From: a virus
Taxonomy: Duplodnaviria > Caudoviricetes
DNA: 46,957 bases
Direction: 5' to 3' (one strand)
IMG/VR virus record: IMGVR_UViG_3300032272_000025
Location: 1-46,957 of that record
Positions 1 to 43,901 of this stretch are shown here, piece after piece. A program made the translations under genes and the position numbers. Positions within the stretch are counted from its first letter, which is position 1. Every line of letters begins with the position of its first letter. The notes beneath the pieces were generated by a model that did no database searches, had not been told where the DNA came from, and worked only from the letters and a program-made list of their open reading frames with translations.

Positions 1-185
1 ACGGGTCATCAAGGTCAATCAGGTTCACATGCCGTCCAGTGGATCATAGTCTCGTGATGTTGATCTATCACGCAATCCAATCGCTGAGTCGAGCTCACCT
101 CGCGGATTATGCCTTGATGGAACTTGGATAGCAAATGTCACTGCAAGTGCTGATACACGTGGTGGTGAGGTAGTGATGACCATTT
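1..185. repeat. Left copy of 185-bp end overlap (matches 46773-46957, 3 mismatches)
   Basis: Direct comparison: identical except position 65 (c vs t), 168 (a vs t) and 172 (a vs t). Joining the ends restores a terL stop/GNAT start GTGA overlap. Confidence 0.95.
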
Positions 186-2088
186 GATCACGACCATTGT
201 GTTCATGGATCACGCTGACCATCGCCTGCTCCATCTGTGCATCAGACGAGATTGATCCTTCATCAAGCAGCCATCCACGCATCTTCGAGTATGCTTCAGC
301 GTTGGTATCCTTATACTTCAGGTCTTCAATCGGCTTCTCCTGCATCCTGATTCTGATTGCATTGTAGCCGATCTCAATGAGCCTGTTGGTGATCATTCCA
401 CCCATGCCTGATTCAGAGATCAATGAGATATCAGGACGATGGGTGTCGAGCACCTTGGACAACAGCTTCACCATTCTTTCAGGGTTCGAGCTGGCTTCCC
501 ATCCAATGTTGTATACCTTCTCGCTGCAAGCATCCTTGCCACGCCTGAACTGAACCCAGCTCTGCTCTGTTGCATCACGTGCAATGTGTACGCCACATAT
601 CAATGGATCTGTACCGAGATACACACCTGACCCTCGATGCATTGAATCAATGATCACTTCTGAACTTATGAACTGCATATCCACTCCTTGTAACATGTCT
701 TCAATCGCATCCATCGTTGGGTCAATCTGGTCATCATGCTTGCCGTTCGGGAACGATGAGAACTCATGTTTATAGTCACTGACCCACTCTGCGTCTTCAG
801 GGATGCTGACGTACCCTGACTCAATGTATGGTGATGTGTCACAGGCTCGTGTGTGCTTGTCGATGTTTCTCTGAATCGCAACTACCGGGATCTCACCCTC
901 ATCAACCAGATCCTGGATCAACCCGGTGCCAGATGCTTTGTCCTCAATCTTCATTGCTCTCAGTGTTCCCATGCCTGCAACTGCTTTGTGCTTTGCCCAG
1001 AACTCACGAGCTCTCTTCTTCAGCTCAGGTCCGAGCCACTTGCCACGCAGCTGATCAAGCAACACGATGCCCTTGGGTGTCTTACCCCAGCACTGCAGCA
1101 CTGAGTAATCGTTGATCTCTTTGATCTTCTGAGCTGTGTCAGCATAGACGTATCGATACAACGTAGCAGGTGCTACCTTGTGATACTTCCACCATTCGTC
1201 CTTGAAGACTCCTCCACCAAGTGGAGATGGTGACTGCATGTACTGACCGGCGAACGTGTAAGGGTCTGCTCTCCTCATTGCTTCAAGTCTCTCGATGCTG
1301 TGCTTCTCTGGCCAGAGTGGCGTACCATCATCATTGATTGCAGGGATGCAGAGATGCTCCCATTCATCACCAGAGCCACCGTCGAGCAGGAACCCAGACA
1401 GATCGTCATCATGTAATCTCTGCATGATGAGAATGATCGGCGTATCTTCTGAGTTGGTACGTGATGCAATGGTGTTGTTGAATCGTTCGTTGACGGTGTT
1501 ACGCACCGCCTCTGATGAAGCATCACCTGGCTTGAGTGGATCATCTATCAGGATGCAGCCAGGAAACCCATCACATGGGCTGCCAGTACCTTCATACACT
1601 CTCTCAATGGCACCAGCACCGAAACCAGTTACAGATGCACCAGCAGCTGTTGCATACAATCCACCACCTTCTTCAGTGTACCACTTCTGCCGGGAGTCAG
1701 TGTCTGATCGAATGCTGACATTGAAGAGTCTCTGGAACTCATCACATTTGATGATGTCCTTGATTGCTGAACTGTTATCCATCGCCAGCTCACCAGAGTA
1801 GCTCAGATGCATGTTACGAGCTGCAGCGTTGTTGGCCATCGTCCACGCCATGAACATCTTCACAGCCAGCTCAGTCTTACCATATCGTGGTGCAATGTTG
1901 ATGATCAATCGACGACATTCACCACTGACGACACGCACCAGTGCTTCAGCAATCTTCGTGTGATGAGGTGCAACAACGAAGCTCTTGCCGTACATGATCT
2001 TGAAGAAGTATCGCAGAAAGAACATGAAGTCGCTGAGCAACTTCACCCTTAATACTTGATCTCTCTCCGCCTGTGTTGGTTGTGTCAC
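25..2088 (-). CDS. terL: Terminase large subunit with extra C-terminal degenerate nuclease-like domain
   Basis: Walker A APRYGKT, Walker B ILIDD, IMQR coupling motif, RNase H-like nuclease motifs YADTA, IEDK and HDDQID; lies directly after terS. About 217 extra residues follow the nuclease domain. Confidence 0.95.
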   Translation of the reverse strand: MTQPTQAERDQVLRVKLLSDFMFFLRYFFKIMYGKSFVVAPHHTKIAEALVRVVSGECRRLIINIAPRYGKTELAVKMFMAWTMANNAAARNMHLSYSGELAMDNSSAIKDIIKCDEFQRLFNVSIRSDTDSRQKWYTEEGGGLYATAAGASVTGFGAGAIERVYEGTGSPCDGFPGCILIDDPLKPGDASSEAVRNTVNERFNNTIASRTNSEDTPIILIMQRLHDDDLSGFLLDGGSGDEWEHLCIPAINDDGTPLWPEKHSIERLEAMRRADPYTFAGQYMQSPSPLGGGVFKDEWWKYHKVAPATLYRYVYADTAQKIKEINDYSVLQCWGKTPKGIVLLDQLRGKWLGPELKKRAREFWAKHKAVAGMGTLRAMKIEDKASGTGLIQDLVDEGEIPVVAIQRNIDKHTRACDTSPYIESGYVSIPEDAEWVSDYKHEFSSFPNGKHDDQIDPTMDAIEDMLQGVDMQFISSEVIIDSMHRGSGVYLGTDPLICGVHIARDATEQSWVQFRRGKDACSEKVYNIGWEASSNPERMVKLLSKVLDTHRPDISLISESGMGGMITNRLIEIGYNAIRIRMQEKPIEDLKYKDTNAEAYSKMRGWLLDEGSISSDAQMEQAMVSVIHEHNGRDQMVITTSPPRVSALAVTFAIQVPSRHNPRGELDSAIGLRDRSTSRDYDPLDGM

Positions 2089-20556: not shown

Positions 20557-20670
20557 ATGCTCGCCGGTGTGATTGAGCCCGTAGCAATGCTGTGGGGGTG
20601 GACTGTACTTGCTAAGCTGTTTGTCATTGCTCTGTACTTCATCCTCAAACGAGAGGGGTGGTTCAAATGA
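20557..20670 (+). CDS. Small membrane protein (37 aa)
   Basis: MLAGVIEPVAMLWGWTVLAKLFVIALYFILKREGWFK; ATGA overlap with the next gene. Confidence 0.55.
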   Translation: MLAGVIEPVAMLWGWTVLAKLFVIALYFILKREGWFK

Positions 20671-22226
20671 GCACCACCTGTCCGAAATGTGAAGGGGGTA
20701 TGGCGAAGTGGGGCAAGACTCCAACAGGAACTCAGCGATACTACTGTAAGCTCTGCAAGTATCGCACCACTCAGCCGACGGTGACTGACTCGCCACTGAT
20801 TGACAAGGACACTGTCAAGGCTCGTGTTGCTGACATCAGAGAGCTGAAGAGATCCACCAAGGTGCAGCGGTATGTGGTCACATCTGCACAGAACAATACC
20901 CCAGTTCATCGCGGGTTCTTTGATGCGTTGCGACAATACTGCAGGCACAACGACGCAGAACTACTGGTCATTCCTGTTCGATACAAAAACCCGACTGGCT
21001 GGGCTGATCGTCACTCTGAGGACGACCTTTGGTATCCGCTTGATGTGAAGCCGTACCTAATTGATCGTGACTTGGTGCTGAACAAGAACATCGCGGTCAT
21101 GGGGTCAATCAAGATCCAAGCAACAGCAGTCGACCCGGTAACCGGATTGGAAACCATATCCGGCACGCGATCAGCAGTCTTTGGGCATGGGCAACTACGG
21201 ATGAAAACTGTCGCCACGCCACAGGATAAGATGCCGAAGATTCTGCACACCACTGGCTCAGTATCGCAGCGTAATTACTCTGAGACAAAGGCCGGTGCCA
21301 AAGGTAAGCATCACCACTCGTTCTCAGCACTGGTCGTTGAAGTAGTCGGTGACGTGTTCCACCTGCGCCAGCTGTCGGCATCATCGGCTGGTTCATTCTA
21401 TGACCTGGATAAGTTCTACACCGCAAGTGGTGTAACAGCTGGAGAGGGTCTGACAGCACTAGTGACCGGTGACGAGCACGCTTTATTCATGGACCCTGTC
21501 GTCCGAGCAGCCACCTACGAGAACAAAGATTCAATAGTCAAAGTGCTGAGCCCGAATACTATTGTGCGTCACGATGTGCTGGACTTCTATCCGCAGAATC
21601 ATCATCACAATAACGACAGGCTGGTCAGGCACATCAATGCAGTGACTGGGCACCATGATGTACGGCAGGAATTGGACACCACGCTGGCTATGATCGACGC
21701 CACGACGCCGAAGGGGGTCGAGAGCCTCATTGTATCATCGAACCACAACGAAGCCCTCATGCGCTGGCTGAACGAATACAAGCCGGATCGTGACCCATTC
21801 AACGCTCTGATCTATCACGAGCTGTGTGCTGCAGTGTACGGCGAAGCAGGTTGGACACCCCAGGGTCCGAAGGCGCCTGATCCATTTGAGCTTTATTCAC
21901 GAGGCCGACTGCAGTGTAATCATCAGTTCCTCAGTGACCGCAAGTCACATCTGATCAAAGGTATCGATGTCGGCCAGCATGGTGACCGAGGCGCGAATGG
22001 AGCGCGTGGAGCTGTCAACAGTTTCGCAATGTCAGAGTATAAGATGATCGTTGGTCACAGTCACTCACCCGCCATTAAGTTCGGTGCTTACCAGACTGGC
22101 ACATCAACATACTTGCAGCTTGGGTATAATCGCGGCCTCAGCTCATGGCTGCAAACCCATTGCGGAATATACCCAAATGGCAAACGAGTACTGATCAGCG
22201 TGATCAACGGAGAGTGGAGAGCATGA
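20667..22226 (+). CDS. T5 A1-like calcineurin-type metallophosphoesterase/DNase with N-terminal zinc ribbon
   Basis: RYVVTSAQNN, HTTG, GDEH, HDVLD, SNH, QHG...GARG, GHSHSP and LGYNRG recall T5 A1; N-terminal CPKC...QRYYCKLC. Confidence 0.8.
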   Translation: MSTTCPKCEGGMAKWGKTPTGTQRYYCKLCKYRTTQPTVTDSPLIDKDTVKARVADIRELKRSTKVQRYVVTSAQNNTPVHRGFFDALRQYCRHNDAELLVIPVRYKNPTGWADRHSEDDLWYPLDVKPYLIDRDLVLNKNIAVMGSIKIQATAVDPVTGLETISGTRSAVFGHGQLRMKTVATPQDKMPKILHTTGSVSQRNYSETKAGAKGKHHHSFSALVVEVVGDVFHLRQLSASSAGSFYDLDKFYTASGVTAGEGLTALVTGDEHALFMDPVVRAATYENKDSIVKVLSPNTIVRHDVLDFYPQNHHHNNDRLVRHINAVTGHHDVRQELDTTLAMIDATTPKGVESLIVSSNHNEALMRWLNEYKPDRDPFNALIYHELCAAVYGEAGWTPQGPKAPDPFELYSRGRLQCNHQFLSDRKSHLIKGIDVGQHGDRGANGARGAVNSFAMSEYKMIVGHSHSPAIKFGAYQTGTSTYLQLGYNRGLSSWLQTHCGIYPNGKRVLISVINGEWRA

Positions 22227-26484: not shown

Positions 26485-29400
26485 TCATTTTCGTTTCGTT
26501 CCGTAAATCAATTCTCGCAGCGTCAGCTCTTCACCTTCTTCGATTACATCGTAGATGTGACCACCTGTTGCCCATGCTTGACTGACACCCGGTATTTTCA
26601 ATGCGACGCCGGTTAGCTTGGACGCAGCTTTATACGGGCCAACAGTGACGTCACTGTCATCAAAGAAGTCTGCGGCGATGCCTTTGTACCCCTGAATACC
26701 AGCCTCAAGTGTTGATGCAACCGGGCTGAAGTTGTACGAGTAATCAGTGGCCAACGCACCCAGTGCGTCACGTGCAAATGGAACAGCAGTGACTGGGTAC
26801 AGCGCAAGCTTGATCAAGGTTTCCTGAAGCATCTCTTCTGGCTCCTTGTCCTCATCGTCGAACTCACCACGCAGCAACATCTCAGTCAGAACCGGTAGGA
26901 TGAACAGGAACATCACCTTAGCTGCAGTCACGTGAGCCGGTGCGCTCTTGGCACTTCGCCCGGTGTCACGAGCCAAGTTACCAAGTGAGCTGAAGAAGGT
27001 CATGAACATTGTCAGAGTGGTGTGCAGCTTCGACTGGTTGCGCATTAGCGTTGCCATGTCTTTGGTTGCACCAGATCCCTGCAGGTTCTCAACAGCCCAG
27101 TCAGCATACTTGACAGCTTTGCGCTCATCGCCGTCTTCAGACAGTGACTTGTCATAAGCTGCATGCCAAGTTGGTAGATCCACCATGTAAGTCTGGACCA
27201 TCGCGATATGCCACATTGACGCACTCTGCACCTTGGCAACTTTACCACGTAAGTCGTGCTTATCTTTCTTACCTTTCAGTGTTGTCTCAGCTGCCCTGAT
27301 CTCCCGGTCCATTGTTGATGTACGATGGTTCATAACCTTTGATCGAGTTGATGCAAAGTCCCACGCACTCTGGATGTCATCAGTGCTGCCGAGTACGCGA
27401 CGAACTGATTTGAGATAGCGTGACCGGCCAACAGTGCTGACGATGGCTTTCAGAGTCTTACCGGCGCCAACCTCTGACGCTGTGGTGAACAATCCGAAGA
27501 TCTGCATGATACCGGTTGAAGCTTTGAAGCCCATCGCACCGAGTGTGACACCGAGTCGCAGGTTACCGAACATGGCCTCGATGAACGTCTTCGATGGGGT
27601 GTTGCTACCGTCCTTCGCGATGTCGTTCAACCAAGGTTTCAGTAGCTTGAACTCTTCCTCACCCAGTGCCGCAGTGATTGCATCAGCGACTGCCGGGCTT
27701 GAGATCAGACGATTCACCTGACGAACTGCATCATGGTGCGTGACATAATGAACCACCTCTTCAAAGTGATTCGGAATGGTGTTGAGGTTCAGCTCAATGC
27801 GATCATAAAACCCAGTACGCTCGTTCACAGATCCAGCTGTCACTGAGCTACTAATCATGCCTCCACGTGAGAACATGGAGTCAACCTCAGCCGCTGCTTT
27901 GTCTGCGTTCTTCTCAGCTTTGTGACTGCGAGCTTTGGAATATACAACTGGGTAGTAGCCACCGTTGAATGTACCGAACTCGGTCACCACGGGTGTAGCC
28001 GCAACCTTCATCGGAGCGAGGCCACTGCTGCTCTCATGTACTGCTTTGAGCATTGGGTACAGTTTGTCCATCTGATCCCATACATGCTGAACGAGCACCC
28101 AGTCTTCACGAGTCATGTGTGACAGGATAGCCTGCAGAGTTTCATTCTCGAAGGTGATCTCGTCTTCATTCTCAGGGTTAGCCCAGCCTTCACCGAGTAG
28201 CATCTTCTTCAGGTTACCAACATTACCAGTATTCAGTGCTACAGCGATCACCTGTGTGGCTCGCATGCTCTCACCGATCTCTTCAATGAAGATGTTCCTC
28301 TGCATCCTGGCTGCGTTCTTTTCCATGTGCTCAGTCAGAGCAGTGATGGTTGGTTCAGTGACTTCAGTGTGCAACCTGAACTTGTGATCCAGTGCGTCAG
28401 TGAATCTCTGCATGATCAGATCGTGCGCCATGTCAACAGGTTCGCCATTGTCCAACCAGCGAGTGAGGAACGGGATCTTGGTCATCTGAGCGTTTGCCCA
28501 TCTGAACAGGTTGCGATCTTCAACGTCTGCGCCTATACCGGCTGACATCTTGCTTGGATACTTCTTACCAACCTTCGCCACGTGTGCTACGAAGTTTGCA
28601 ACAACTTCCTGGAAGTCGCGGAGATCTTCACCAATGCTGATCTTATTGGTGTACCTTGCCACATGCTCGATATTCTTCAGTGAGTCGTTGATACCCTGTA
28701 GATCATCATACTTCACGTTCTTCCAGTGCGTGGTGTATGCCTCATCCAGCACAGCGTCAGACAGCACTAGATTGTCACCAGCGGTTTCAATACGCTCAGC
28801 CACCCACGTGGCCAGTGCGACGTTCGCTCTGTCGACCTGCTTCATTGTAGCGGTTTTGTGGAACTCGAATCGACTGATGATCTTGTCAATCTGCTCCAGG
28901 TAACCGGCATCAGCTTTCGCGATATTCTCGCGCACTGACTTCTTACGGTAGCGAGCAACCCGGTCAACGATCTTCATGGTGTTGCTCTTAGCCTCAGTAG
29001 CTGCGATAGCAAGATAATGATTCATTGCCTGACGACTCTTGGCGTCGGCTGCAAGCGGTTTGTTCCCTTCGGCAAGGGCAGTGGCTGACTCCTGTGCTGC
29101 GCGGATCTCAGCGGCTCTGTACTTACCGGGATTGATCTCACGGAATGACATCTGACCGACGCGTTCTTCGGCCAGGAACTTCATTGTGCGACGATCCAAC
29201 GTAGCCTGAGATGTGCCCTTCATCAGAGCCTTCAACTCAATCAGGATCAGGGCACCACGTTCTTCATTCATCACTGCTTCATCTGCCAGCTGCTGAATGC
29301 TGCCGTCAGTCAGGATGTCGCCATGCCTCTCAATCATTCGAGCTTCAGCATTCTGTTCAGCTTTTACGCTGAGCTTCGGAGCATCGATGATCTCTTTAAT

Positions 29401-32400
29401 CATCTGGTCACCAGAGTCGAAGCCGAAGAAAGCAGCCGCGTCATCAGCTGTTACACCTTCGCCGCCCTTGATGGTCAGACCGATCAGAGCCGGTGGGACG
29501 ATTGTTGAAGTGCGACCGCGTTTATCAGTACGCTCGAAACCATAAGCTTCTTTCACAGCAGCGTGATCCAGTTTGAACTCACCACCTCTCAGAGCAGTGA
29601 TTGCGCGATAGACTGGCTCACCTTTCAACGATTCAGTCTCTTCATCGATCAGGTCACTCTTCTCAGACTTCCACCACTTCTGAGTCTGTCGAGTCAGCTG
29701 CTTGATCATCTGATCGCGCAGTGTCTCACGAGCTTTGTCTTCACTTAGACCCTGCTTCTCTTTGTACTCAGCGAACTGTTTGTCAGTCATGCCAGCCATC
29801 GCTGCGTCAGAGAACATCGGCTCAAACTTAGCACGAGCTTCTGCAGCTGCGATCTGTTCCTCAGTAGCGATCAACCGGTCAAACACCTGACGCATCTCGT
29901 CAGTGAGCTTCACGTTCAGATCACCCTTGACAACCTGATACACTTGAACCAGCCATCTGGCGAAGGTGCGGAACACATTACGAAGTTCCATTGATGGCGC
30001 TTTGCCTTCCATCAGGTACGCCTCAAAGCCACGAGCAAACTGCTCATGAATTGCAACTTCGATTGCTGTGTCGAAGTCTGCCAGACCGGTTGTACCGTTG
30101 GCCAGGAACTCACGGATGTTATCAGTTGACACCATGCTGATGCCATCTGTCATGTTGTCAGTTGCTTCTTTTGCTACGTCCTGAATGTTACTGGCAATCC
30201 AGTTCTTGATGGCAGGCAGCTGTGAGCCGTCTGTTTTCTGCTCCATGTCAAGCATGAAATGGGCAAACTCGTGCAGGAATGTAGAAAGATCTGATGACTC
30301 GGTGAGTCGAATCAGAGTGTTACCGGAATCGTATGTACCCCGTGTTACATCGCTGGTTGTTTGCTCTGGCTGGTTGAAAACATCCGAGCCAACAGGGATT
30401 CCTTCAGACTCGTCGAGCTGAATATTTTGTCCCGCTGGTCCACCACGGCTTTCGATGACTCGTGCGGCTGCTTCTTGATAGCTGATATCTGCTGTTTGTT
30501 TGGCACCTAACTCTCCATATAATCGTTTTTCATAGTACCACAAGATAGCCTGAATATCGGCAACAGTCAATTTGTGACCCTTGCGGGATAGTGTCTTTTG
30601 AGCACGGTTGACTGTGTCGAGCATGAACGTGCGATCTGTCGCACTGTATGGTGCATCTTCGATGTTTACGAATGCCTGCTTGTACAAAGAGTTGGCAGCT
30701 TTCTCAACTGGTGTGCCGTCTTTGTAACCCTTATCTGCGTAGGTCTTCGCATGAACCACAGTCTGAGCGAGAGCTTCGTCATCACTGATGTCAGGCTGGC
30801 CGATGAGATCTTTGAACCTGGCCAAGCCGATCTTACGACCTTTCGCATCAGTAGGTTTGTCAGATGTGCCGGATACACTCTGCAGCAATGAACCACGATA
30901 CCGGTTGAATGTACGAGTCCACCACCGGTCCATAGTAAGGTAGCCGTGAGAGCCCATCAGGTTAGCGTAGAACGCTCCGAGTTTAGGTCCGAGTACGATG
31001 GCAGCCATTGGCAGTTTAATGTGCGCTTGGTGGTTCGTAGAGAACTCCACGCCATCTTCTTTCGCCATCTTCTTCAGCTCACTGATTGTTGCCTCTTGCA
31101 TTAGGTTCTCATGAACCTCTGCCGCAGTCATGCGTGAGAACATGTCAGTCAGGATCTGAAGATTAGCGTCGATACTATCCTGGCGCTGGTGACCACGGTC
31201 AGTGGTGAACCCGTTGCCGTCGCGATAGTTGGAGTAGATGTCCACAGCCTGTGCAAAGTTCGGCACAACCTTCTGACCGTCGCTGGTGATCGCAATCAAC
31301 AGAGTCAGGGTGTTGCGAGCATCCTGATCAGTCTGTAGCTCTGGGAACTGTTCGGCAAATGTATCAATGGCTGCTTGGAACTTCTCACTGTACCAACCAA
31401 CACCAGACTCGCCCGGTGAGTCGAGCTCGAACATGACTTCGTCAACCATCCACTTGGCAAGCTTCTTCGACGCCTCTGGGCTCTGATCCTTGCGATCAAC
31501 CATACCATACTTCTGACGGGTGCGAGCTTCAAGAGCTGCAGCAACGTCGCGAGTGAGATGGCGTTTGTTTGGATCAAGGCCGAACCGCTTCAGAGTCTCT
31601 GTGCCGCGACGGAGAGCTGCTGATTGCTTGTAGACCTGCGCCTGTTTGACCTCATCATTCACCGCTTCGATGGTCACGGCGCCTTCATCCCAGATGACGT
31701 AGTTTGAAGTTCCGCTTGATTTTCCGCGACTGGTGGCGTCTGAGTATTTCAACCCCTTAATACCTATGGAGTCAAGAAAGATACTAGCCTTCTTGTCAGA
31801 TCTGTCGTCGTAAATGGAGTAAGGAGGTTGATCCAACTCGTCTTTTAGTATGAAGTAAATGGTTCTGCCTGTGGTAGATCCCATCTCAAAAGACTGAAGC
31901 GATTCCTTGATCTTGGGGGAATCCACCCCTCTAAGAGCCCTTAGTACTTTAGGACTCTGCTCACTCATAGGCTTATCCCAATCAAGGAGCACGTCGTCTT
32001 CAGGGATGTCCACCTGGTAGAGTGTCCCAGATTTCAAGGGATGGTCAGCCTTAGCAAGAGAATCGAAAGCGCTTGAATAATCCTTCATCGTTGCTTCTGA
32101 TAGATTATATGACTCAATGAACTGCTGTTTAGCGCTCACCCATGTCGACCCTGTATGAGCAGATGATAATGCAAAGTCAGCAGCCTCTTTTTCTATTTCA
32201 GAAATGTCCTCATACCATTCAGGATTCTCTCCCTCAGACAGAGTGTCTCTGTAATATTCAGCAATCTCCTTCTTCCCTGCGAAATACAATCCCCATCCGT
32301 AAGCCTGGGCGCCTTCTCCAGAGCCCATAGCAGCAAGGCTGAATTTGTCGAACTTATGAGGTGTGCCGTGGAAAGCAGACTGCTTGAGCACAGGTGCAGT

Positions 32401-35400
32401 GGTGTACTCAGTGCTAGTGTCACCAATGTTACCAACCAACTCCTGCAGAGCCTGGTTGTCGTTTGAAGCAGCGTATCCTTTGAAGTTGCCGGAATCCCAG
32501 TACTGAGTGACGAACTTGAAGTTCTTTCTGAGGATGCTCTCAAGCTCAGCCTGCTCGACCATGTTCTTGTTCATACCTTCAAGCACTTCTGCGCTCTTCT
32601 TGGTCATGTCCTCTTTGCGGAAGTACTGAGACTTATACTCATTCTTCTTGGCTTCGTTCGCATCCCACTGGTCAGTGAACAACTTCTCTTCGATGATAGC
32701 AACGCCACCCTCAGCAACAAGGTCAGCGACTCTACCTATCTGAGCATCACGGTCATTATGGATGAACTGGAACACCATTGACTCATGAACCACGTCGAAC
32801 TTCTGGCTCTTCGGATCGTACCAGTTGGTGCCTTCCCATGCTTCAGTGCCGTCGTCAGCCTGCTCTGTGCCGAATGCTGCATTCACATACTCAGCGCCGG
32901 GTACTGGGGACTTGTTGAACGTGGCCTCCATCGAATCGTTCGGATCAAGCGCCACGCCGGTCATCTCAGATGTCTCAGCAATGGCTTTGACCATCGCACC
33001 CTCAGACGCTCCGATGTCCAGGATCGTGCCAGTCTTGAATGTCTTAGCGATTGCAGCACCAACCAGATCCTGTACCTCACGGTGACCAGGGATGCTGGAT
33101 GCAATGTGCACGTCGAAGTTGCCACGGTGTTTATCAATAGCAGCTTTGAAATCTGGATCAACTGGTGTGTCGATTACAGGGGTGTACTCTTTCTTGAGCG
33201 ATGGCTTTCCTTCCTCGCCTTCAGTCACTCCAGCGAAGAAATCTTTGAAAGCGTCTGCTTCCTGCTTCTTGGTGGCTGCGATCTCACCATCAACTTTACC
33301 CTTATAGAACGAAGCAGCGACAAGCCCGACGGACGGGTCATTTACAATGTAGCCAGCGTAGCCAGCTTCCTTGATGTTCTTCTCATATGTGCTCAGGTCA
33401 AACACACCGAAATCTGTTGACTCGGCTTTCAGGTTGTCTGGGTCGGCATTGAAGTCATACAGTGACGCAGGATCGATGAACACATTATAAGTCTTTGTGC
33501 CAATCTCTTTCTCCTGCTTGTAGTCAGCAGCGGTCCCTTCTTCGATGCCGTAGTAGGCGCGATCAACCCACGCAGCTGGGTTCTCTTTCTTGCGTTTAGT
33601 CTCATCACCTGTGTAACCGGTGCCGTGGAATGACGGGTCAATCTCAGTCAGACCTTCTTTCCTGCTGCGATGAGTGAGTCGAATCTGACCGCTCTCGTTT
33701 GTCGGAATGTCGATGCCAGCTAGTGTCACTGAAGAGTCACGCTTTGTTAAGAACGCACTCGCACCCTCAAGAGAAAGACCTGTGCCACCTGTACCACCTG
33801 TCTTGATGACAGTCTTATTCGCAAGATCATAGATTGAGTCTTGGTTGAGATCCTTGCCAAGCTGCAGAGCCTGCCCCTTATCAGGCGTGACTACGTTAAT
33901 GTCAATGCTCTTATTACCGTCCCCGAAGTCGAACACACCGATGGTCACGTTCGAGCGTGATAACAGCTCTTTGTTCTCTTCCGCAAACGCCAGCAACTCT
34001 GCATCAACGTCAGCTTCGTCAGTGATATTCTTTGAACGCATTGTCGCAACATAGCCAGTGTCAGCCTCAAACACTGACCCATTGGGGTTAAGGGTGATGC
34101 CCCCGTTCTCAGCGACAGCGTCTGCCACCGAAATTGGTTTAAATTCAACAGGCTCGCCTTGCTTCAGCACACCAGCTGCCTGCAGCTCTGCGGCTTTGCC
34201 GGTCATCGGCCCTTCAACCTTCAGGCCGAACTGCTCGTACATCTGAGCAACTGGCAGTTTAAGTTCCTTCGATTTCACGGCAATGTACGCCGGTACGATC
34301 TCCGCAAGTAAACTGGCCTGCTGTGCGTCGACACGACCCGTATCAATCAACTGGTCACGAACCGATGCGAAGATCTCCTGTGATTCTGCGTACTGCGATA
34401 CAGTCTCGTTCGCCTGATCCATCAGTCGATCACGGTATGCCTTCATCGACTCGACAGCTTGCTCATGCCTGAATGGAGTCGGAGTCTCAGGGTCAACAGT
34501 CATGTGCTGACGCAGTTCGTCATAGTGCTCAGTGCCAGCAAGATCAGTGGCAAAGTCGGCAACAGGGATTGAGATTGATGTGTTCAGCTCACCCTCTTCT
34601 GCAAGCTTGTCGCGCAGGATCTGCAGTGCAGGATCTGCGTCAATCTCTTCAGGTGTTTTCTGGTTCAGGTATTCAGCAGCCTGCTCACTGTCAATGTGGA
34701 TCTGTGAGTCTGGGTCAATACCCTTCACGAACTGCCTGAATGTCTCGCCATCAAGCTCACGTGTAGAAGACTTCGATGCGTAATGGTTCAACAAATCAAT
34801 CGTCTGCTGGCCATTCATGTCAACCTGATCTTTCACATTGAATGCAGCAGTTTCAGCCTTCTTGTACTGAGACTCGTAATAATAGCTCATACCCTTCGCA
34901 GCACCAACTTGGATGCCACCACCCACCACTGTCGCAATGGCAGTGCTGACGGCAGCGTCAGGACGCTCAGCGAGGTATTCTGTAAACGGTTTGTCTTTGT
35001 TCTCTGGCAGCATCGCCCAGTCGTTCAGATCCTGCAGTACTGTCGCAGCCTGCTCACTTGGGATCTCACGTGCGAGGAACCCGACCACGTTCTTCATGAA
35101 GCCCGGATCTTTCTCCAGTATCTTCTGCAGTGGCTTGAAGGCCAGCTTCTCAGTGAAGATCTCGATACCTGCCTGGGATGTACCAAGTAGTGCAGCCTTC
35201 TCAGGTGACAGACCTTTCTCCAGACCTTGTGACGCTGACGTGCCGAACGTCGACGCACCCATCAACGGGATCATCAGCTCAGGGTTGCGAGACAGAACAG
35301 CAGCACCGAGTAGTGCGACACCATGAACACCGGACTGCACACCGGACGCAACATCCTGCATAAATGGTGACAGCTTCTTGTTGTCAGCAGTCAGTGATTT

Positions 35401-35943
35401 TGTCAGAGCTCGTGAGCCAGCAGCCTGTTCAGCAAAGTAGTCAGCCAGAGTTGCCGCTGGATCTTTCACGTTCTTGTAGCCGAACACACCCTTGGCCACT
35501 TCGCCCATTGGCTCAGTGAGATACTTGGAGATCAGACGCAGAGGGCTCTCGAAGATACCAGAGGCAGCTTCAGATAGGTTTGGTGCGACTGCTGCTACGT
35601 TTTTACCAGCGAGCATTACACCTTCAAGCGCACTCAGAGTGTCAATATCGTCATGAGACAGTGACGCATTGTTAAAGTCAGTCAGGTATTTTGATGTACC
35701 TGGTGCACGCTTCTCCATGTCAGCAAAGTCGATGCCTTTGTAGATGAGATCTCGTTTGACCTCATCCTCGGCGCCGACCACAGCCTCAGCCGGGATGCCT
35801 GACTCTCTGCTCAGTCGCTGTGTCTCGGCGTGCTGCTTCGGATTTACTTTGAGTGCTTCAGATACTGTGAGTTGTGGGCTCTCAGTCTCAGTCTCAAAGG
35901 TGCTCAGATCTACATTAGACAGCTTACTCTCATTGATTGGCAT
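26485..35943 (-). CDS. Giant internal virion/ejection protein, polyvalent type (3152 aa)
   Basis: Third gene after the nozzle and before the fibre (gp16-like slot). Contains ILDIGASEG MTase, FHGT...GxGLYF ART-like, GPK..AF/DRW glycosylase-like and HEFAH zincin motifs. Confidence 0.85.
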   Translation of the reverse strand: MPINESKLSNVDLSTFETETESPQLTVSEALKVNPKQHAETQRLSRESGIPAEAVVGAEDEVKRDLIYKGIDFADMEKRAPGTSKYLTDFNNASLSHDDIDTLSALEGVMLAGKNVAAVAPNLSEAASGIFESPLRLISKYLTEPMGEVAKGVFGYKNVKDPAATLADYFAEQAAGSRALTKSLTADNKKLSPFMQDVASGVQSGVHGVALLGAAVLSRNPELMIPLMGASTFGTSASQGLEKGLSPEKAALLGTSQAGIEIFTEKLAFKPLQKILEKDPGFMKNVVGFLAREIPSEQAATVLQDLNDWAMLPENKDKPFTEYLAERPDAAVSTAIATVVGGGIQVGAAKGMSYYYESQYKKAETAAFNVKDQVDMNGQQTIDLLNHYASKSSTRELDGETFRQFVKGIDPDSQIHIDSEQAAEYLNQKTPEEIDADPALQILRDKLAEEGELNTSISIPVADFATDLAGTEHYDELRQHMTVDPETPTPFRHEQAVESMKAYRDRLMDQANETVSQYAESQEIFASVRDQLIDTGRVDAQQASLLAEIVPAYIAVKSKELKLPVAQMYEQFGLKVEGPMTGKAAELQAAGVLKQGEPVEFKPISVADAVAENGGITLNPNGSVFEADTGYVATMRSKNITDEADVDAELLAFAEENKELLSRSNVTIGVFDFGDGNKSIDINVVTPDKGQALQLGKDLNQDSIYDLANKTVIKTGGTGGTGLSLEGASAFLTKRDSSVTLAGIDIPTNESGQIRLTHRSRKEGLTEIDPSFHGTGYTGDETKRKKENPAAWVDRAYYGIEEGTAADYKQEKEIGTKTYNVFIDPASLYDFNADPDNLKAESTDFGVFDLSTYEKNIKEAGYAGYIVNDPSVGLVAASFYKGKVDGEIAATKKQEADAFKDFFAGVTEGEEGKPSLKKEYTPVIDTPVDPDFKAAIDKHRGNFDVHIASSIPGHREVQDLVGAAIAKTFKTGTILDIGASEGAMVKAIAETSEMTGVALDPNDSMEATFNKSPVPGAEYVNAAFGTEQADDGTEAWEGTNWYDPKSQKFDVVHESMVFQFIHNDRDAQIGRVADLVAEGGVAIIEEKLFTDQWDANEAKKNEYKSQYFRKEDMTKKSAEVLEGMNKNMVEQAELESILRKNFKFVTQYWDSGNFKGYAASNDNQALQELVGNIGDTSTEYTTAPVLKQSAFHGTPHKFDKFSLAAMGSGEGAQAYGWGLYFAGKKEIAEYYRDTLSEGENPEWYEDISEIEKEAADFALSSAHTGSTWVSAKQQFIESYNLSEATMKDYSSAFDSLAKADHPLKSGTLYQVDIPEDDVLLDWDKPMSEQSPKVLRALRGVDSPKIKESLQSFEMGSTTGRTIYFILKDELDQPPYSIYDDRSDKKASIFLDSIGIKGLKYSDATSRGKSSGTSNYVIWDEGAVTIEAVNDEVKQAQVYKQSAALRRGTETLKRFGLDPNKRHLTRDVAAALEARTRQKYGMVDRKDQSPEASKKLAKWMVDEVMFELDSPGESGVGWYSEKFQAAIDTFAEQFPELQTDQDARNTLTLLIAITSDGQKVVPNFAQAVDIYSNYRDGNGFTTDRGHQRQDSIDANLQILTDMFSRMTAAEVHENLMQEATISELKKMAKEDGVEFSTNHQAHIKLPMAAIVLGPKLGAFYANLMGSHGYLTMDRWWTRTFNRYRGSLLQSVSGTSDKPTDAKGRKIGLARFKDLIGQPDISDDEALAQTVVHAKTYADKGYKDGTPVEKAANSLYKQAFVNIEDAPYSATDRTFMLDTVNRAQKTLSRKGHKLTVADIQAILWYYEKRLYGELGAKQTADISYQEAAARVIESRGGPAGQNIQLDESEGIPVGSDVFNQPEQTTSDVTRGTYDSGNTLIRLTESSDLSTFLHEFAHFMLDMEQKTDGSQLPAIKNWIASNIQDVAKEATDNMTDGISMVSTDNIREFLANGTTGLADFDTAIEVAIHEQFARGFEAYLMEGKAPSMELRNVFRTFARWLVQVYQVVKGDLNVKLTDEMRQVFDRLIATEEQIAAAEARAKFEPMFSDAAMAGMTDKQFAEYKEKQGLSEDKARETLRDQMIKQLTRQTQKWWKSEKSDLIDEETESLKGEPVYRAITALRGGEFKLDHAAVKEAYGFERTDKRGRTSTIVPPALIGLTIKGGEGVTADDAAAFFGFDSGDQMIKEIIDAPKLSVKAEQNAEARMIERHGDILTDGSIQQLADEAVMNEERGALILIELKALMKGTSQATLDRRTMKFLAEERVGQMSFREINPGKYRAAEIRAAQESATALAEGNKPLAADAKSRQAMNHYLAIAATEAKSNTMKIVDRVARYRKKSVRENIAKADAGYLEQIDKIISRFEFHKTATMKQVDRANVALATWVAERIETAGDNLVLSDAVLDEAYTTHWKNVKYDDLQGINDSLKNIEHVARYTNKISIGEDLRDFQEVVANFVAHVAKVGKKYPSKMSAGIGADVEDRNLFRWANAQMTKIPFLTRWLDNGEPVDMAHDLIMQRFTDALDHKFRLHTEVTEPTITALTEHMEKNAARMQRNIFIEEIGESMRATQVIAVALNTGNVGNLKKMLLGEGWANPENEDEITFENETLQAILSHMTREDWVLVQHVWDQMDKLYPMLKAVHESSSGLAPMKVAATPVVTEFGTFNGGYYPVVYSKARSHKAEKNADKAAAEVDSMFSRGGMISSSVTAGSVNERTGFYDRIELNLNTIPNHFEEVVHYVTHHDAVRQVNRLISSPAVADAITAALGEEEFKLLKPWLNDIAKDGSNTPSKTFIEAMFGNLRLGVTLGAMGFKASTGIMQIFGLFTTASEVGAGKTLKAIVSTVGRSRYLKSVRRVLGSTDDIQSAWDFASTRSKVMNHRTSTMDREIRAAETTLKGKKDKHDLRGKVAKVQSASMWHIAMVQTYMVDLPTWHAAYDKSLSEDGDERKAVKYADWAVENLQGSGATKDMATLMRNQSKLHTTLTMFMTFFSSLGNLARDTGRSAKSAPAHVTAAKVMFLFILPVLTEMLLRGEFDDEDKEPEEMLQETLIKLALYPVTAVPFARDALGALATDYSYNFSPVASTLEAGIQGYKGIAADFFDDSDVTVGPYKAASKLTGVALKIPGVSQAWATGGHIYDVIEEGEELTLRELIYGTKRK

Positions 35944-37574
35944 CAGTCCCTCACCTGCTCGTACAAGTTGATCAAGTTCTTGTTAGTGACTGGCAGGTTA
36001 TTTGCTCTGAGGGTGTTAGTCAATATATCAATCTCGTCTTGTGGCAGATCGAGCACCGCATCCTTCAATCTTACTTCAGATTTATAAGAGATACCGAGTA
36101 TGGATTTATCACGTGCAACCTTGCGCGTGAACCCATTGAGAAGGTCAGTGTACTCATCCGAAGTCAGGTCGCGTTTGAGCTGCACCTTGCGTGCGCGAGC
36201 CTCGTCGTCAATGAGCTTGTACACCTTATCCGCTGTGGCTTGTTTCTCTGTGCTCCAGTCCTTCGACTTCTTGCCCAGGATCTGTTCAACAGTCGATTTA
36301 GTCTGTGCTGCGATGGTGCGACCAACCTGATGCTCAGATGATTTCTCACCCTTGCGTGCCGCCTTGTATGCAGTGTAAAACTTATTGCGCTCTTCTTTGG
36401 CGAGGTGTGGTACATATTTGTTCGGGTCGACTTTCGCCAGCTCCACTGGGTCCATGAGCATGAACTCATTGTACTTGTTCCAGTTGGTAGTGACAGGCTT
36501 GCCGGATTCAATGGATCGCCTCTGTGTTACAGTCAGACTGTCCCAAGCTGCCTCATTGGTCGCCATAAACTGAGCAGCAGTGCCGCCTTTGTATATGAAG
36601 TCTTCAGCGAGCTCAAAGTTTTGAACCCTTGCATCAGCGTCAGCGGATCTCTTATTCGCGAATTGCGACTGCAGCTCACGAAGAGCCTTGCCCATCAGCT
36701 CTGGGTCATTCTTGGTCTTCTCGCGCACCGCGTCCTGCATCTCGGATAAGCTCTTGTAACGAGTGAGCACATTATTGGTGATAGACACCGCAGCAATCGC
36801 ATCGTCGCGCTGTTTCTCCTGCCTGCTCTTTGTCTCGATACCGTCTTTGATGATAGCCTTGTCAGCACCTTCCAGACGCTCACCATAAAGATCAAGAGCT
36901 TCCATGCCCTTCTCAGCAGACTCAGCAGTGGCTGCTTTGATAGCAGCCTGTGCAGCTGACGCATCGAAGTTCTGAAGCTGTTCGTTAAGTGCTTCACCAG
37001 AGATACCCTCAAGCTTGGCAGCGTCGCGAATGGCAGCTCTGCCTAATTCAAACTGCAGCGCCACGTTCTCTTTGTTGCCCCAGTCGAGTGCGATATTCTC
37101 GATTGAGTTCTCAACACCTGCTTTGATGGTGGCGACTTCCCACGCCTTGAACCCTTTGAATGCATGCTGCTGAATGTTACTCATGCCCTGTGTAACGTGC
37201 TTCTCAGCAACCCTGTTAAACTTGTCACGTGCGCCGGCACTCAGTGACTCAGAGTAGTTCTTCTTGAGCTTGGTGAGGCTCTCAGTGACCCTACCCTGCA
37301 TGTCATACGCATCTTTACCCTGGGTGTTGAAGTACCCACCATCTGGGTTATGGAAGAGTGCGTTCTTCTCTCGCTCGAACTTGGTGAGAGCTTCCTCAGC
37401 TTCAGTGGTGCTGATGTCGTCAACGATTGCTTCACCGGCTTTCGCCAGTGCAGATATACCTTCACCGAGTCCAGCGCCTGGTGCGGCACCGGCTGGCTGA
37501 TAGTTCGCACGAGGCGTCTTTGCGACCTGTAGGTCGACACGTTGTTCTCCGTATTCAGGGATCTTGATTGGCAT
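35943..37574 (-). CDS. Internal virion/ejection protein (gp15-like slot)
   Basis: MPIKIPEY N-terminus, helical, GYFNTQGKDA; synteny. Confidence 0.75.
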   Translation of the reverse strand: MPIKIPEYGEQRVDLQVAKTPRANYQPAGAAPGAGLGEGISALAKAGEAIVDDISTTEAEEALTKFEREKNALFHNPDGGYFNTQGKDAYDMQGRVTESLTKLKKNYSESLSAGARDKFNRVAEKHVTQGMSNIQQHAFKGFKAWEVATIKAGVENSIENIALDWGNKENVALQFELGRAAIRDAAKLEGISGEALNEQLQNFDASAAQAAIKAATAESAEKGMEALDLYGERLEGADKAIIKDGIETKSRQEKQRDDAIAAVSITNNVLTRYKSLSEMQDAVREKTKNDPELMGKALRELQSQFANKRSADADARVQNFELAEDFIYKGGTAAQFMATNEAAWDSLTVTQRRSIESGKPVTTNWNKYNEFMLMDPVELAKVDPNKYVPHLAKEERNKFYTAYKAARKGEKSSEHQVGRTIAAQTKSTVEQILGKKSKDWSTEKQATADKVYKLIDDEARARKVQLKRDLTSDEYTDLLNGFTRKVARDKSILGISYKSEVRLKDAVLDLPQDEIDILTNTLRANNLPVTNKNLINLYEQVRD

Positions 37575-38047
37575 TATTTTAACGCTCCATATGCGCTCTT
37601 AGCGAACTGAGCACCACCTGTCAACACTGATGTGCGGAATGCATTGCTACCTGCTCTTGCTCTGGCGCGACCATCCATGCGCGTGAGCATTGCGCCCTCT
37701 TCAACAGCAGTGGCTTGATCTTCAACTGACTGCCTGATCCTCATGGCGTCGACTTCACCCATTGTGAATGTATCACGCTGCACAGCAGCAGCAGACCCAG
37801 AGTTTACGACCACACCCGATGCACCGAACGCTGCTCGCTGTCGTGAAGCGAGCCTTGCCACGCTCTGCCTGAGATCGTTCTCTCGCTGCACACCGGCCTT
37901 GCGAATACGCACTGCGTCAATCTCACCCATTCGTGCATTGTATTCGGCAATGTGCTGATCACGCTCACCTGCGGCCTTTGCTGCACCACCTTGTGCAAGT
38001 GTCCCAGCTAGTGATAGTCCTGCCATTGCGAGTAGCTGCCATGCCAT
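37574..38047 (-). CDS. Small internal virion/ejection protein (gp14-like)
   Basis: Gly/Ala-rich, QRAAFGASGV..NSGS motif; synteny. Confidence 0.8.
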   Translation of the reverse strand: MAWQLLAMAGLSLAGTLAQGGAAKAAGERDQHIAEYNARMGEIDAVRIRKAGVQRENDLRQSVARLASRQRAAFGASGVVVNSGSAAAVQRDTFTMGEVDAMRIRQSVEDQATAVEEGAMLTRMDGRARARAGSNAFRTSVLTGGAQFAKSAYGALK

Positions 38048-43217: not shown

Positions 43218-43901
43218 TCATGTTTTATTGTTGTTGTCATTCGGGTACAGCTCACTGACAATATCCTTCGGAGCCTTTTGATGACCGCCCATGTCTCCAG
43301 GGTTGTCCTCCTTCAGAGTCTTGCCAACTTTCACCATAAACCGGAAGAGGTCAGGATTATTTGCCATCCCTTGTTCATCCAGCATTGTTCTCAGCTCTGG
43401 AGTACCGAACGCATCGATCGCTGCTTTAGCGACGCCCTGATTCTTTGCGAAATCAGCGCCACCAAACTCAGCATCATTTTTGCACTCGTTAGCCCATCCC
43501 TGAATAAGCTGTTCGTATGACGCATCCTGAGATTTCTGACCCTCCTCAGCCTGTGCAAGCATGAAGTCTATGATCTTCTGACTCTGTGCAGGGTTGAGTT
43601 CGGCGTCTGAAATCAGAGCATCGACCACCTCCTTGTTCTCATCAGTAAGTTCAATACCTTCAGGCAGGACGTAGCTGGAGGAATCATCATCACCAGTACC
43701 AGTGTCATCGCCATCAGCGTCGACCTTGGTTTCACCCTCGGTCTGTTTACCGTCTTCAGCGGCAGCATTGGTATCAGCCGCAGCCTGCTCACCTTCGTCG
43801 GTATTTGTATCACCAGTCAGCACTGAACCAGTGTCAGCCGGTGTATCACCGGTCAACACGCCAGCATCTGCTGCTGAAGTATCTACGCTCTCATCGCTCA
43901 T
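43218..43901 (-). CDS. Capsid scaffolding/assembly protein
   Basis: Acidic N-terminus, YVLPEG, D.EFGG, N.P....M.KVGK...ED, LYP; directly upstream of the major capsid gene. Confidence 0.8.
   Translation of the reverse strand: MSDESVDTSAADAGVLTGDTPADTGSVLTGDTNTDEGEQAAADTNAAAEDGKQTEGETKVDADGDDTGTGDDDSSSYVLPEGIELTDENKEVVDALISDAELNPAQSQKIIDFMLAQAEEGQKSQDASYEQLIQGWANECKNDAEFGGADFAKNQGVAKAAIDAFGTPELRTMLDEQGMANNPDLFRFMVKVGKTLKEDNPGDMGGHQKAPKDIVSELYPNDNNNKT

Follow-up and report, generated by a model that had tools for sequence, protein, structure and literature searches.

The locus described here raises the question of how enzymes that are built into one very large virion protein could be set free. 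The window (the whole stretch of DNA that was analysed: the complete virus record IMGVR_UViG_3300032272_000025, 46,957 bases) carries on its minus strand an open reading frame (ORF; 26485..35943) for a polyvalent internal virion protein of 3,152 amino acids, in the gp16 (IVP-D) slot. In this protein a short peptide tag recurs at the joints between modules, beside a zincin-like peptidase domain. Judged from comparison of the sequences, the tag, [LFY]-x-Q, is rather probably recognised and cut by the protein's own zincin, which would so free the cargo modules. All coordinates of parts of this protein are on the minus strand.

Junction tags in the window protein

The four tags listed by the first-pass annotation were all located: VLKQ (residues 592-595; 34159..34170), which opens the main cargo site; VLKQ (residues 1185-1188; 32380..32391), supported by motif match and relatives; VYKQ (residues 1437-1440; 31624..31635); and VFNQ (residues 1855-1858; 30370..30381), which closes the main cargo site directly before the zincin strands. 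The peptidase motifs HEFAH (30259-30273) and HEQFA (30034-30048) were also present. The pattern V-[LYF]-[KN]-Q matched the protein exactly four times (0.12 expected; four matches were reached in 0 of 10,000 shuffles). This pattern was written post hoc, from the data themselves, so the tests on homologues bear the weight. Those tests upheld the recurrence of the motif and its place at joints, but not its exact form: V was the commonest residue before the core, yet was found in 44 of 164 junctions alone, and the conserved core is [LFY]-x-Q. The protein contains 21 matches to this looser core, 13 of which fall within the cargo region.

Exchange of modules at tagged joints in relatives

Fifty viral loci were compared: 46 proteins carried both anchors, and 45 (the window protein included) were kept after removal of one near-duplicate. 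Conserved across the 50 loci were an N-terminal scaffold (residues 1-595) and the zincin with a C-terminal scaffold (residues 1855-3152). The main cargo site between N scaffold and zincin, V1, varied in length from 127 to 1,302 amino acids; in the window protein it holds 1,260 amino acids of cargo. The tag opened V1 in 42/45 proteins and closed it in 44/45. A second cargo site, V2, lies within the zincin, in the loop that leads from the HExxH helix to the helix HEQFARGFE. Filled V2 sites had a tag at both ends in 20/20 cases, and locus L043 carried two V2 cassettes with a tag between them. The empty V2 loops (n=25) contained one tag in 8 cases, a degenerate x-K-Q in 6 and none in 11, among them the loop of the window protein (residues 1927-1939; 30127..30165). 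Chains of n cassettes were accompanied by n+1 tags, and cargo-less forms kept a single one: in ten such proteins one tag, with an invariant Q, stood between the N scaffold and the zincin strands.

When the sequences were cut at the tags, 107 cassettes in 45 clusters were obtained, and two clusters recurred at V1 as well as at V2. Thirty cluster representatives were scanned with Pfam: the matches were to ART-PolyVal, PBECR5, GGDEF, GNAT, JAB, zeta-toxin kinase and DUF7178, and 19 representatives matched nothing. The tag also divides unannotated giant proteins into modules, and this lays open a catalogue of candidate early-acting anti-defence enzymes.

Joints were also examined without reliance on cutting at the tag. 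Internal alignment ends fell within 10 residues of a tag in 262/510 cases (72 expected; the pairs are not independent), and joints called blind to the motif carried a tag in 23 of 31 cases (5.7 expected). Among relatives of cargo 2 of the window protein, all 11 module starts (10 non-duplicate loci) lay no more than 4 residues from a tag. As an internal control, an insert of 155-171 amino acids at about residue 2120 had no tag at its ends in 6/6 proteins. Modules were gained, lost and reordered at tagged joints in the alignment of homologues. The first-pass annotation had named among the grounds for rejection the burial of the motifs inside domains and a lack of module exchange at the junctions, and the homologues showed neither.

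The tag extends to more distant proteins. In a prophage set (80 loci from bacterial genome assemblies, 30-42% identity), an automated rule placed it just ahead of the zincin strands in 59 of the 73 proteins that could be scored, and inspection by eye in 63, the rule having mis-anchored four rows with a visible tag; the background was 12%. The end of the N scaffold was followed by a tag in 47/61. In the cultured phages examined, the tag stood directly before the zincin in 8/8; it is present in BPP-1, Carin-1, Jess A and CP2, among others. The protein concerned is gp32 in the Cobetia phage Carin-1 and gp039c in the Caulobacter phage Jess A, where a single cassette is flanked by two tags.

Two further features of these relatives were recorded. 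The untagged insert of 155-171 amino acids is a single family (L002, L003, L031, L032, L036, L044), and a similar domain opens the cargo site in the prophage proteins L061, L064, L087 and L095, which have no opening tag. A second zincin (HEVQH and HEVLH, respectively) lies as cargo between tags in L054 (3022-9663; phage AF gp16) and L057 (2248-9684; phage CP2 ORF24).

The tag follows the scaffold and is constrained as protein

Cargo 3 of the window protein was used as a query and gave 80 further loci. After removal of 13 duplicates or truncated starts, 41 belonged to the scaffold family of the window protein, 24 had other HExxH scaffolds and two had no HExxH seen. Immediately before cargo 3, [LFYM]-x-Q was present in 41/41 members of the window's scaffold family. 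Together with the counts at both ends of V1 and at the joints called blind, this result refutes the explanation that the motifs are chance matches picked post hoc, which the 21 occurrences of [LFY]-x-Q in the window protein favour and which we find hardly credible.

With other HExxH scaffolds, the tag rule flagged 4/24 proteins before cargo 3, and two of these four matches lie inside the module, which leaves two proteins with the tag at that place. The flagged L173 resembles, by inspection, a distant member of the window's scaffold family, and in the flagged L171 the tag follows an ART cassette. A different motif, [FYL]-S-[RLSTK], preceded cargo 3 in 14/24 of the other scaffolds versus 4/41 of the window's family, and L167 (54% identical in cargo 3) had an F/Y-S-x motif at three joints. 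These sequence comparisons support the conclusion that the tag follows the scaffold family, not the cargo. The sequences are related by descent, so the counts do not represent independent events. In L165, L167, L197, L200 and L205-L221, an HExxH zincin lies upstream and cargo 3 is flanked by [FYL]-S-[RL] (EEFSR, QYSR, KFSL). L173 (ORF from 1490) carries a long insert with a second HExxH domain; the insert separates the RG strand from the strand that leads into the protein's own HExxH helix, and is possibly a third cargo site.

As far as the codons can tell, the constraint acts on the protein and not on the DNA. All six Leu codons and both Gln codons were in use at the 164 close-relative junctions. 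At 105 more diverse sites, scored with per-gene controls, there was no excess of DNA conservation (16.24 vs 16.49 +/- 0.24 bits), all six Leu codons, both Gln codons and those for Phe and Tyr were represented, and the median longest shared run was 4 nucleotides. It could be supposed that cassettes recombine at a DNA crossover point which shows in the protein as the tag, functionless as a peptide. That each joint has one tag, and that empty sites have just one, has the look of a cassette system, and the close viral set showed about 1 bit of excess DNA conservation (15.4 vs 14.4 for the pooled-codon control). The results on codon variety, the diverse sites and the short shared runs largely refute this explanation, which we judge very improbable.

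The zincin-like peptidase

The peptidase core (residues 1868-2040; 29824..30342) was delimited from motifs and a structural model, and comprises two strands, the HEFAH helix and the third-ligand helix HEQFARGFE (from 30048). Two features by which zincins are recognised, the HExxH helix and a Glu in a helix further on, are both conserved: HExxH and the downstream Glu were invariant in 76 aligned sequences (rows partly picked by these motifs). Among the 33 family members found through cargo 3, HExxH was retained in all, and the third-ligand helix was matched by pattern in 22. In none of the family members seen did an intact scaffold carry a degenerate HExxH; in L133, the HExxH half is wholly absent.

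A model built from a deep alignment (predicted local distance difference test score, pLDDT, 85.8; predicted template modelling score 0.78) placed two strands before the HExxH helix, and VFN of the fourth tag as a third strand at low confidence (pLDDT about 55-58); in a first model, from 25 close sequences, the strands were not formed. Foldseek returned nothing significant for either model. Zincins headed the list of VIA structural neighbours, all with Z below 8: lethal-factor-type domains came first (Z 5.3, root-mean-square deviation (rmsd) 4.4, 129 residues aligned), the lethal-factor catalytic domain gave Z 5.1 (rmsd 4.0, 103 aligned) and the Pro-Pro endopeptidases ranked lower (Z 4.3 and 3.9), values that are weak and not decisive alone. 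Profile matches were weak (SprT, E 0.11; FtsH, E 0.18). Although these zincins are the best fold neighbours (Z 5.3-3.9, rmsd 4.0-5.3, 103-129 aligned), they are 10-16% identical and are stand-alone secreted enzymes or domains, not cargo carriers; the resemblance is one of fold alone.

Iyer et al. (2017, PMC5512222) describe the core of the zincin-like MPTase as three strands and two helices, preceded by an N-terminal helix. In cargo-less forms the order of elements is helix, strand, tag, RGxF strand, strand and HExxH. Because two strands alone follow the cargo and because of this order, we infer that V1 too is part of the zincin, as a loop that joins strands one and two. The N scaffold ends in a helix and a strand (residues 560-580; 34204..34266), which would then supply the zincin with its N-terminal helix and its first strand, on the pattern of the cargo-less relatives; profile searches gave no confirmation that these residues belong to the zincin.

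Proposed release of cargo, and alternatives

The proposed mechanism is as follows. A fixed scaffold with its zincin would carry swappable cargo, with a tag at each joint. Ejection of the protein along with the phage DNA is likely, and the modules would be freed in the infected bacterium. The zincin-like domain would bind zinc and catalyse the cut, with the tag bound as a strand in the active-site cleft; if V1 is a zincin loop, both ends of the cargo would lie near the active site. The candidate bond is after Q or on the N-terminal side of L/F/Y. Fusion to an ejected scaffold is what would deliver the cargo, so cutting would probably follow ejection, and we mildly favour cutting after delivery over cutting in the head. 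If cut at all four tags, the 347 kDa protein would give predicted fragments of 64.5, 64.5, 28.0, 46.6 and 143.8 kDa. A broader scheme, plausible to us if not quite to be expected, is an address code: each zincin clade would read its own tag, cargo would be plugged into loops of the peptidase, the tag would be rewritten on a change of scaffold, and the cut would be made on entry. If true, this would give bacteriophages a counterpart of the self-processing viral polyprotein, one whose cassettes are interchangeable.

Several results weigh against release by cutting. The tag is short, and most [LFY]-x-Q matches in the window protein fall inside modules. Its first module (593 amino acids) consists of three domains with no tag at the two internal joints; 8/31 of the blind-called joints, about a quarter of those between cargo and cargo, were without a tag, as was the main-site opening in 14/61 prophage proteins. 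Cargo frequently begins 1-2 residues past Q, so that a cut after Q would have scant space beside the folded cargo, and Pro follows Q in 30/164 junctions. The VFN strand of the model could occupy the slot of the absent first strand. To these are added the DNA excess in the close viral set, mentioned above, and the literature covered, which held no cleavage data for this protein family. Finally, the N4 virion RNA polymerase (vRNAP) is packaged unprocessed according to Iyer et al. (2017, PMC5512222), and in the model of PMC13434306 it stays on its tether after ejection.

The N4 protein, gp50, resembles the window protein in plan: the accessible text of PMC13434306 describes an ejected protein with an N domain, a linker, an enzyme cargo, a second linker, an HExxH domain and a helical C domain. 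It differs in having one fixed cargo and in being reported as intact and tethered, and the same text mentions no junction motif. That vRNAP stays intact despite its own HExxH domain speaks for another function of the tag, as a docking or folding signal: a strand that binds the zincin or scaffold, or that sets the pace at which the protein unfolds and threads the tail, with the cargo left on its tether. The tag was modelled as a strand beside the zincin sheet, and scaffold-specific conservation at the protein level suits a binding tag equally. Docking fails, however, to explain why the general-base Glu and both His are kept in 33/33 members, or why each joint has its own tag in chains of several cassettes; it is the main rival, but we consider it unlikely.

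Another protease, of phage head maturation or of the host, might instead cut the tag. The window contains a gene labelled 'protease' (phrog_458; 43218..43901, minus strand) between the portal and capsid genes. Its product is acidic, scaffold-like and without a peptidase family match, and the BPP-1 capsid and cement proteins are reported as uncleaved (PMC3863775); for these two reasons a head protease is unlikely. In addition, no conserved tag lies within the gp15-slot protein (8/42 in the best internal column), phages with very different hosts share one and the same tag, and the tag changes with the scaffold. Cutting by another protease is, in our estimate, quite improbable, and cutting by the zincin itself is the reading that we retain. 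The phrog_458 label may be an inherited mis-annotation of a protein that resembles an acidic scaffolding protein.

Autoproteolysis by the MPTase was proposed earlier for polyvalent proteins, with processed P1 DdrB cited (Iyer et al., 2017, PMC5512222; accessible text). That text makes the zincin-like MPTase the hub of phage-type polyvalent proteins, as here; unlike the present analysis, it describes no junction motif, scaffold-specific code or tagged cargo within the peptidase. A full-text literature search, with most subscription journals outside its coverage, found no paper describing the junction motif. Autoproteolytic release is thus known as a 2017 proposal; new are the scaffold-tracking test, the tagged cargo inside the peptidase, the untagged control insert and the testable cultured phages. 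The processing of polyvalent proteins, and the place of any cuts, have been a matter of proposal since 2017; the tag supplies exact candidate sites and fragment sizes, and its presence in cultured phages with small cargo makes the question experimentally tractable.

Cargo modules and scaffolds of the window protein

The three domains of the first module also move separately in relatives. Cargo 1a (residues 596-740; 33724..34158) had no close or named relative and no Pfam match, and is assigned to no family. The first-pass annotation had called it SAM-lyase-like (SAM, S-adenosylmethionine). Comparison with six DUF3293-like cargo domains, picked by a query-derived motif, gave an hhalign probability of 9.9% over 36 columns, a weak resemblance that at most hints at a link to SAM lyase (PF23780)/DUF3293. 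DUF3293/SAM-lyase-like domains are cargo in the family members L153, L157, L164, L166, L181 and L187. Cargo 1b (residues 741-886; 33286..33723) is a mobile domain outside known families, with relatives in L046, L103 and L055; it had no domain-library match, and its earlier label, ART-like (ADP-ribosyltransferase), rests on inspection by eye. The methyltransferase label of cargo 1c (residues 887-1184; 32392..33285) is supported by matches to PF13489, above cut-off, and phrog_4752, which point to a class I SAM-dependent enzyme.

Cargo 2 (residues 1189-1436; 31636..32379), also labelled ART-like, matched ART-PolyVal below cut-off and in its N-terminal part alone (E 4.5e-5; 24.7 bits vs a cut-off of 31.2), consistent with an ART-PolyVal-like ADP-ribosyltransferase fold. 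Cargo 3 (residues 1441-1854; 30382..31623) appears to be a widespread helical domain related to DUF7178, in which the motifs GPKLG and LTMDxWW are invariant; partial DUF7178 matches were obtained in 29/38 relatives. The glycosylase-like label given to it earlier was not borne out: no PDB match and no HhH Pfam match were found. The label goes back to a likeness in motif to HhH-GPD DNA glycosylases, which neither profile nor PDB search confirmed.

The N-terminal conserved scaffold, delimited by Pfam and the alignment of relatives, covers residues 1-591 up to the first tag (34171..35943), with LPD22 at residues 30-117. The C-terminal conserved scaffold is helical and was delimited from homologues (residues 2041-3152; 26488..29823).

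Genomic setting

The source phage is an uncultured BPP-1/epsilon15-like podophage, and the large protein is a polyvalent protein in the T7 gp16 slot, as first annotated. This assignment follows from a match to phrog_9880 (E 3e-285), from homology to BPP-1 Bbp10 (29% over the C-terminal part) and from the order of the minus-strand late block: portal, scaffold-like gene, epsilon15-type capsid protein (PF20911), adaptor, nozzle, gp14-slot protein, gp15-slot protein, the ORF of 3,152 amino acids and tail fibre. As in polyvalent proteins, several unrelated enzymatic domains are joined in one large polypeptide, and the gene lies among virion genes. Of the marker domains of that family, LPD22 scored above cut-off in the window protein, and ART-PolyVal and PBECR5 did so in relatives. 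Gene position and homology to Bbp10 place the protein in the extended T7 IVP-D family, and Bbp10 is listed as a T7 IVP-D (gp16) homologue by Hardies et al. (2016, PMC4819975). By analogy with the gp16-slot literature, and from gene order, it is likely that the window protein is located in the virion and ejected.

The C-terminal 1,294 amino acids had matches in 50 phage records, led by Vibrio phage 1.021.A (56%) and followed, in order, by Carin-1, AF, OANV1, BPP-1 Bbp10 (29%), Caulobacter Jess A and Xanthomonas CP2. The gene occurred without differences in one contig, from a single DNA run that may be the window's own source. For gp35 of the CP2-like phage Xacm4-11, which is syntenic with the window protein, a role as core protein has been proposed. 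BPP-1 Bbp10, a direct homologue, and epsilon15 gp17 (IVP-D, epsilon15 group) occupy the same slot, in the run of genes from nozzle and internal virion proteins to tail fibre. Unlike the window protein, gp16/gp17 of epsilon15 and BcepC6B lack HExxH and have no detectable similarity to the scaffold profiles, against which epsilon15 gp17 scored no better than control proteins. The idea that the window protein is epsilon15 gp16 and gp17 joined by a zincin was unsupported by these profiles.

Upstream of the large gene lie those of the gp15-slot internal virion protein (35943..37574, minus strand; 543 amino acids; phrog_10475, and phrog_1044 for the N-terminal part) and the gp14-slot internal virion protein (37574..38047, minus strand; phrog_418). 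The gp15-slot protein matches the N-terminal part alone of lysozyme-bearing PHROGs and, unlike BPP-1 Bbp11, has no lysozyme match. Outside the virion genes, at the end of the replication block, a gene at 20658-22226 (plus strand) matches a PHROG annotated as 'DNA transfer protein' and encodes an N-terminal IS1-type zinc ribbon. The large terminase subunit (25-2088, minus strand) has about 210 C-terminal residues past its Pfam and PHROG matches. The GC skew changes sign at about 4,000 and 23,000, where the coding strand switches.

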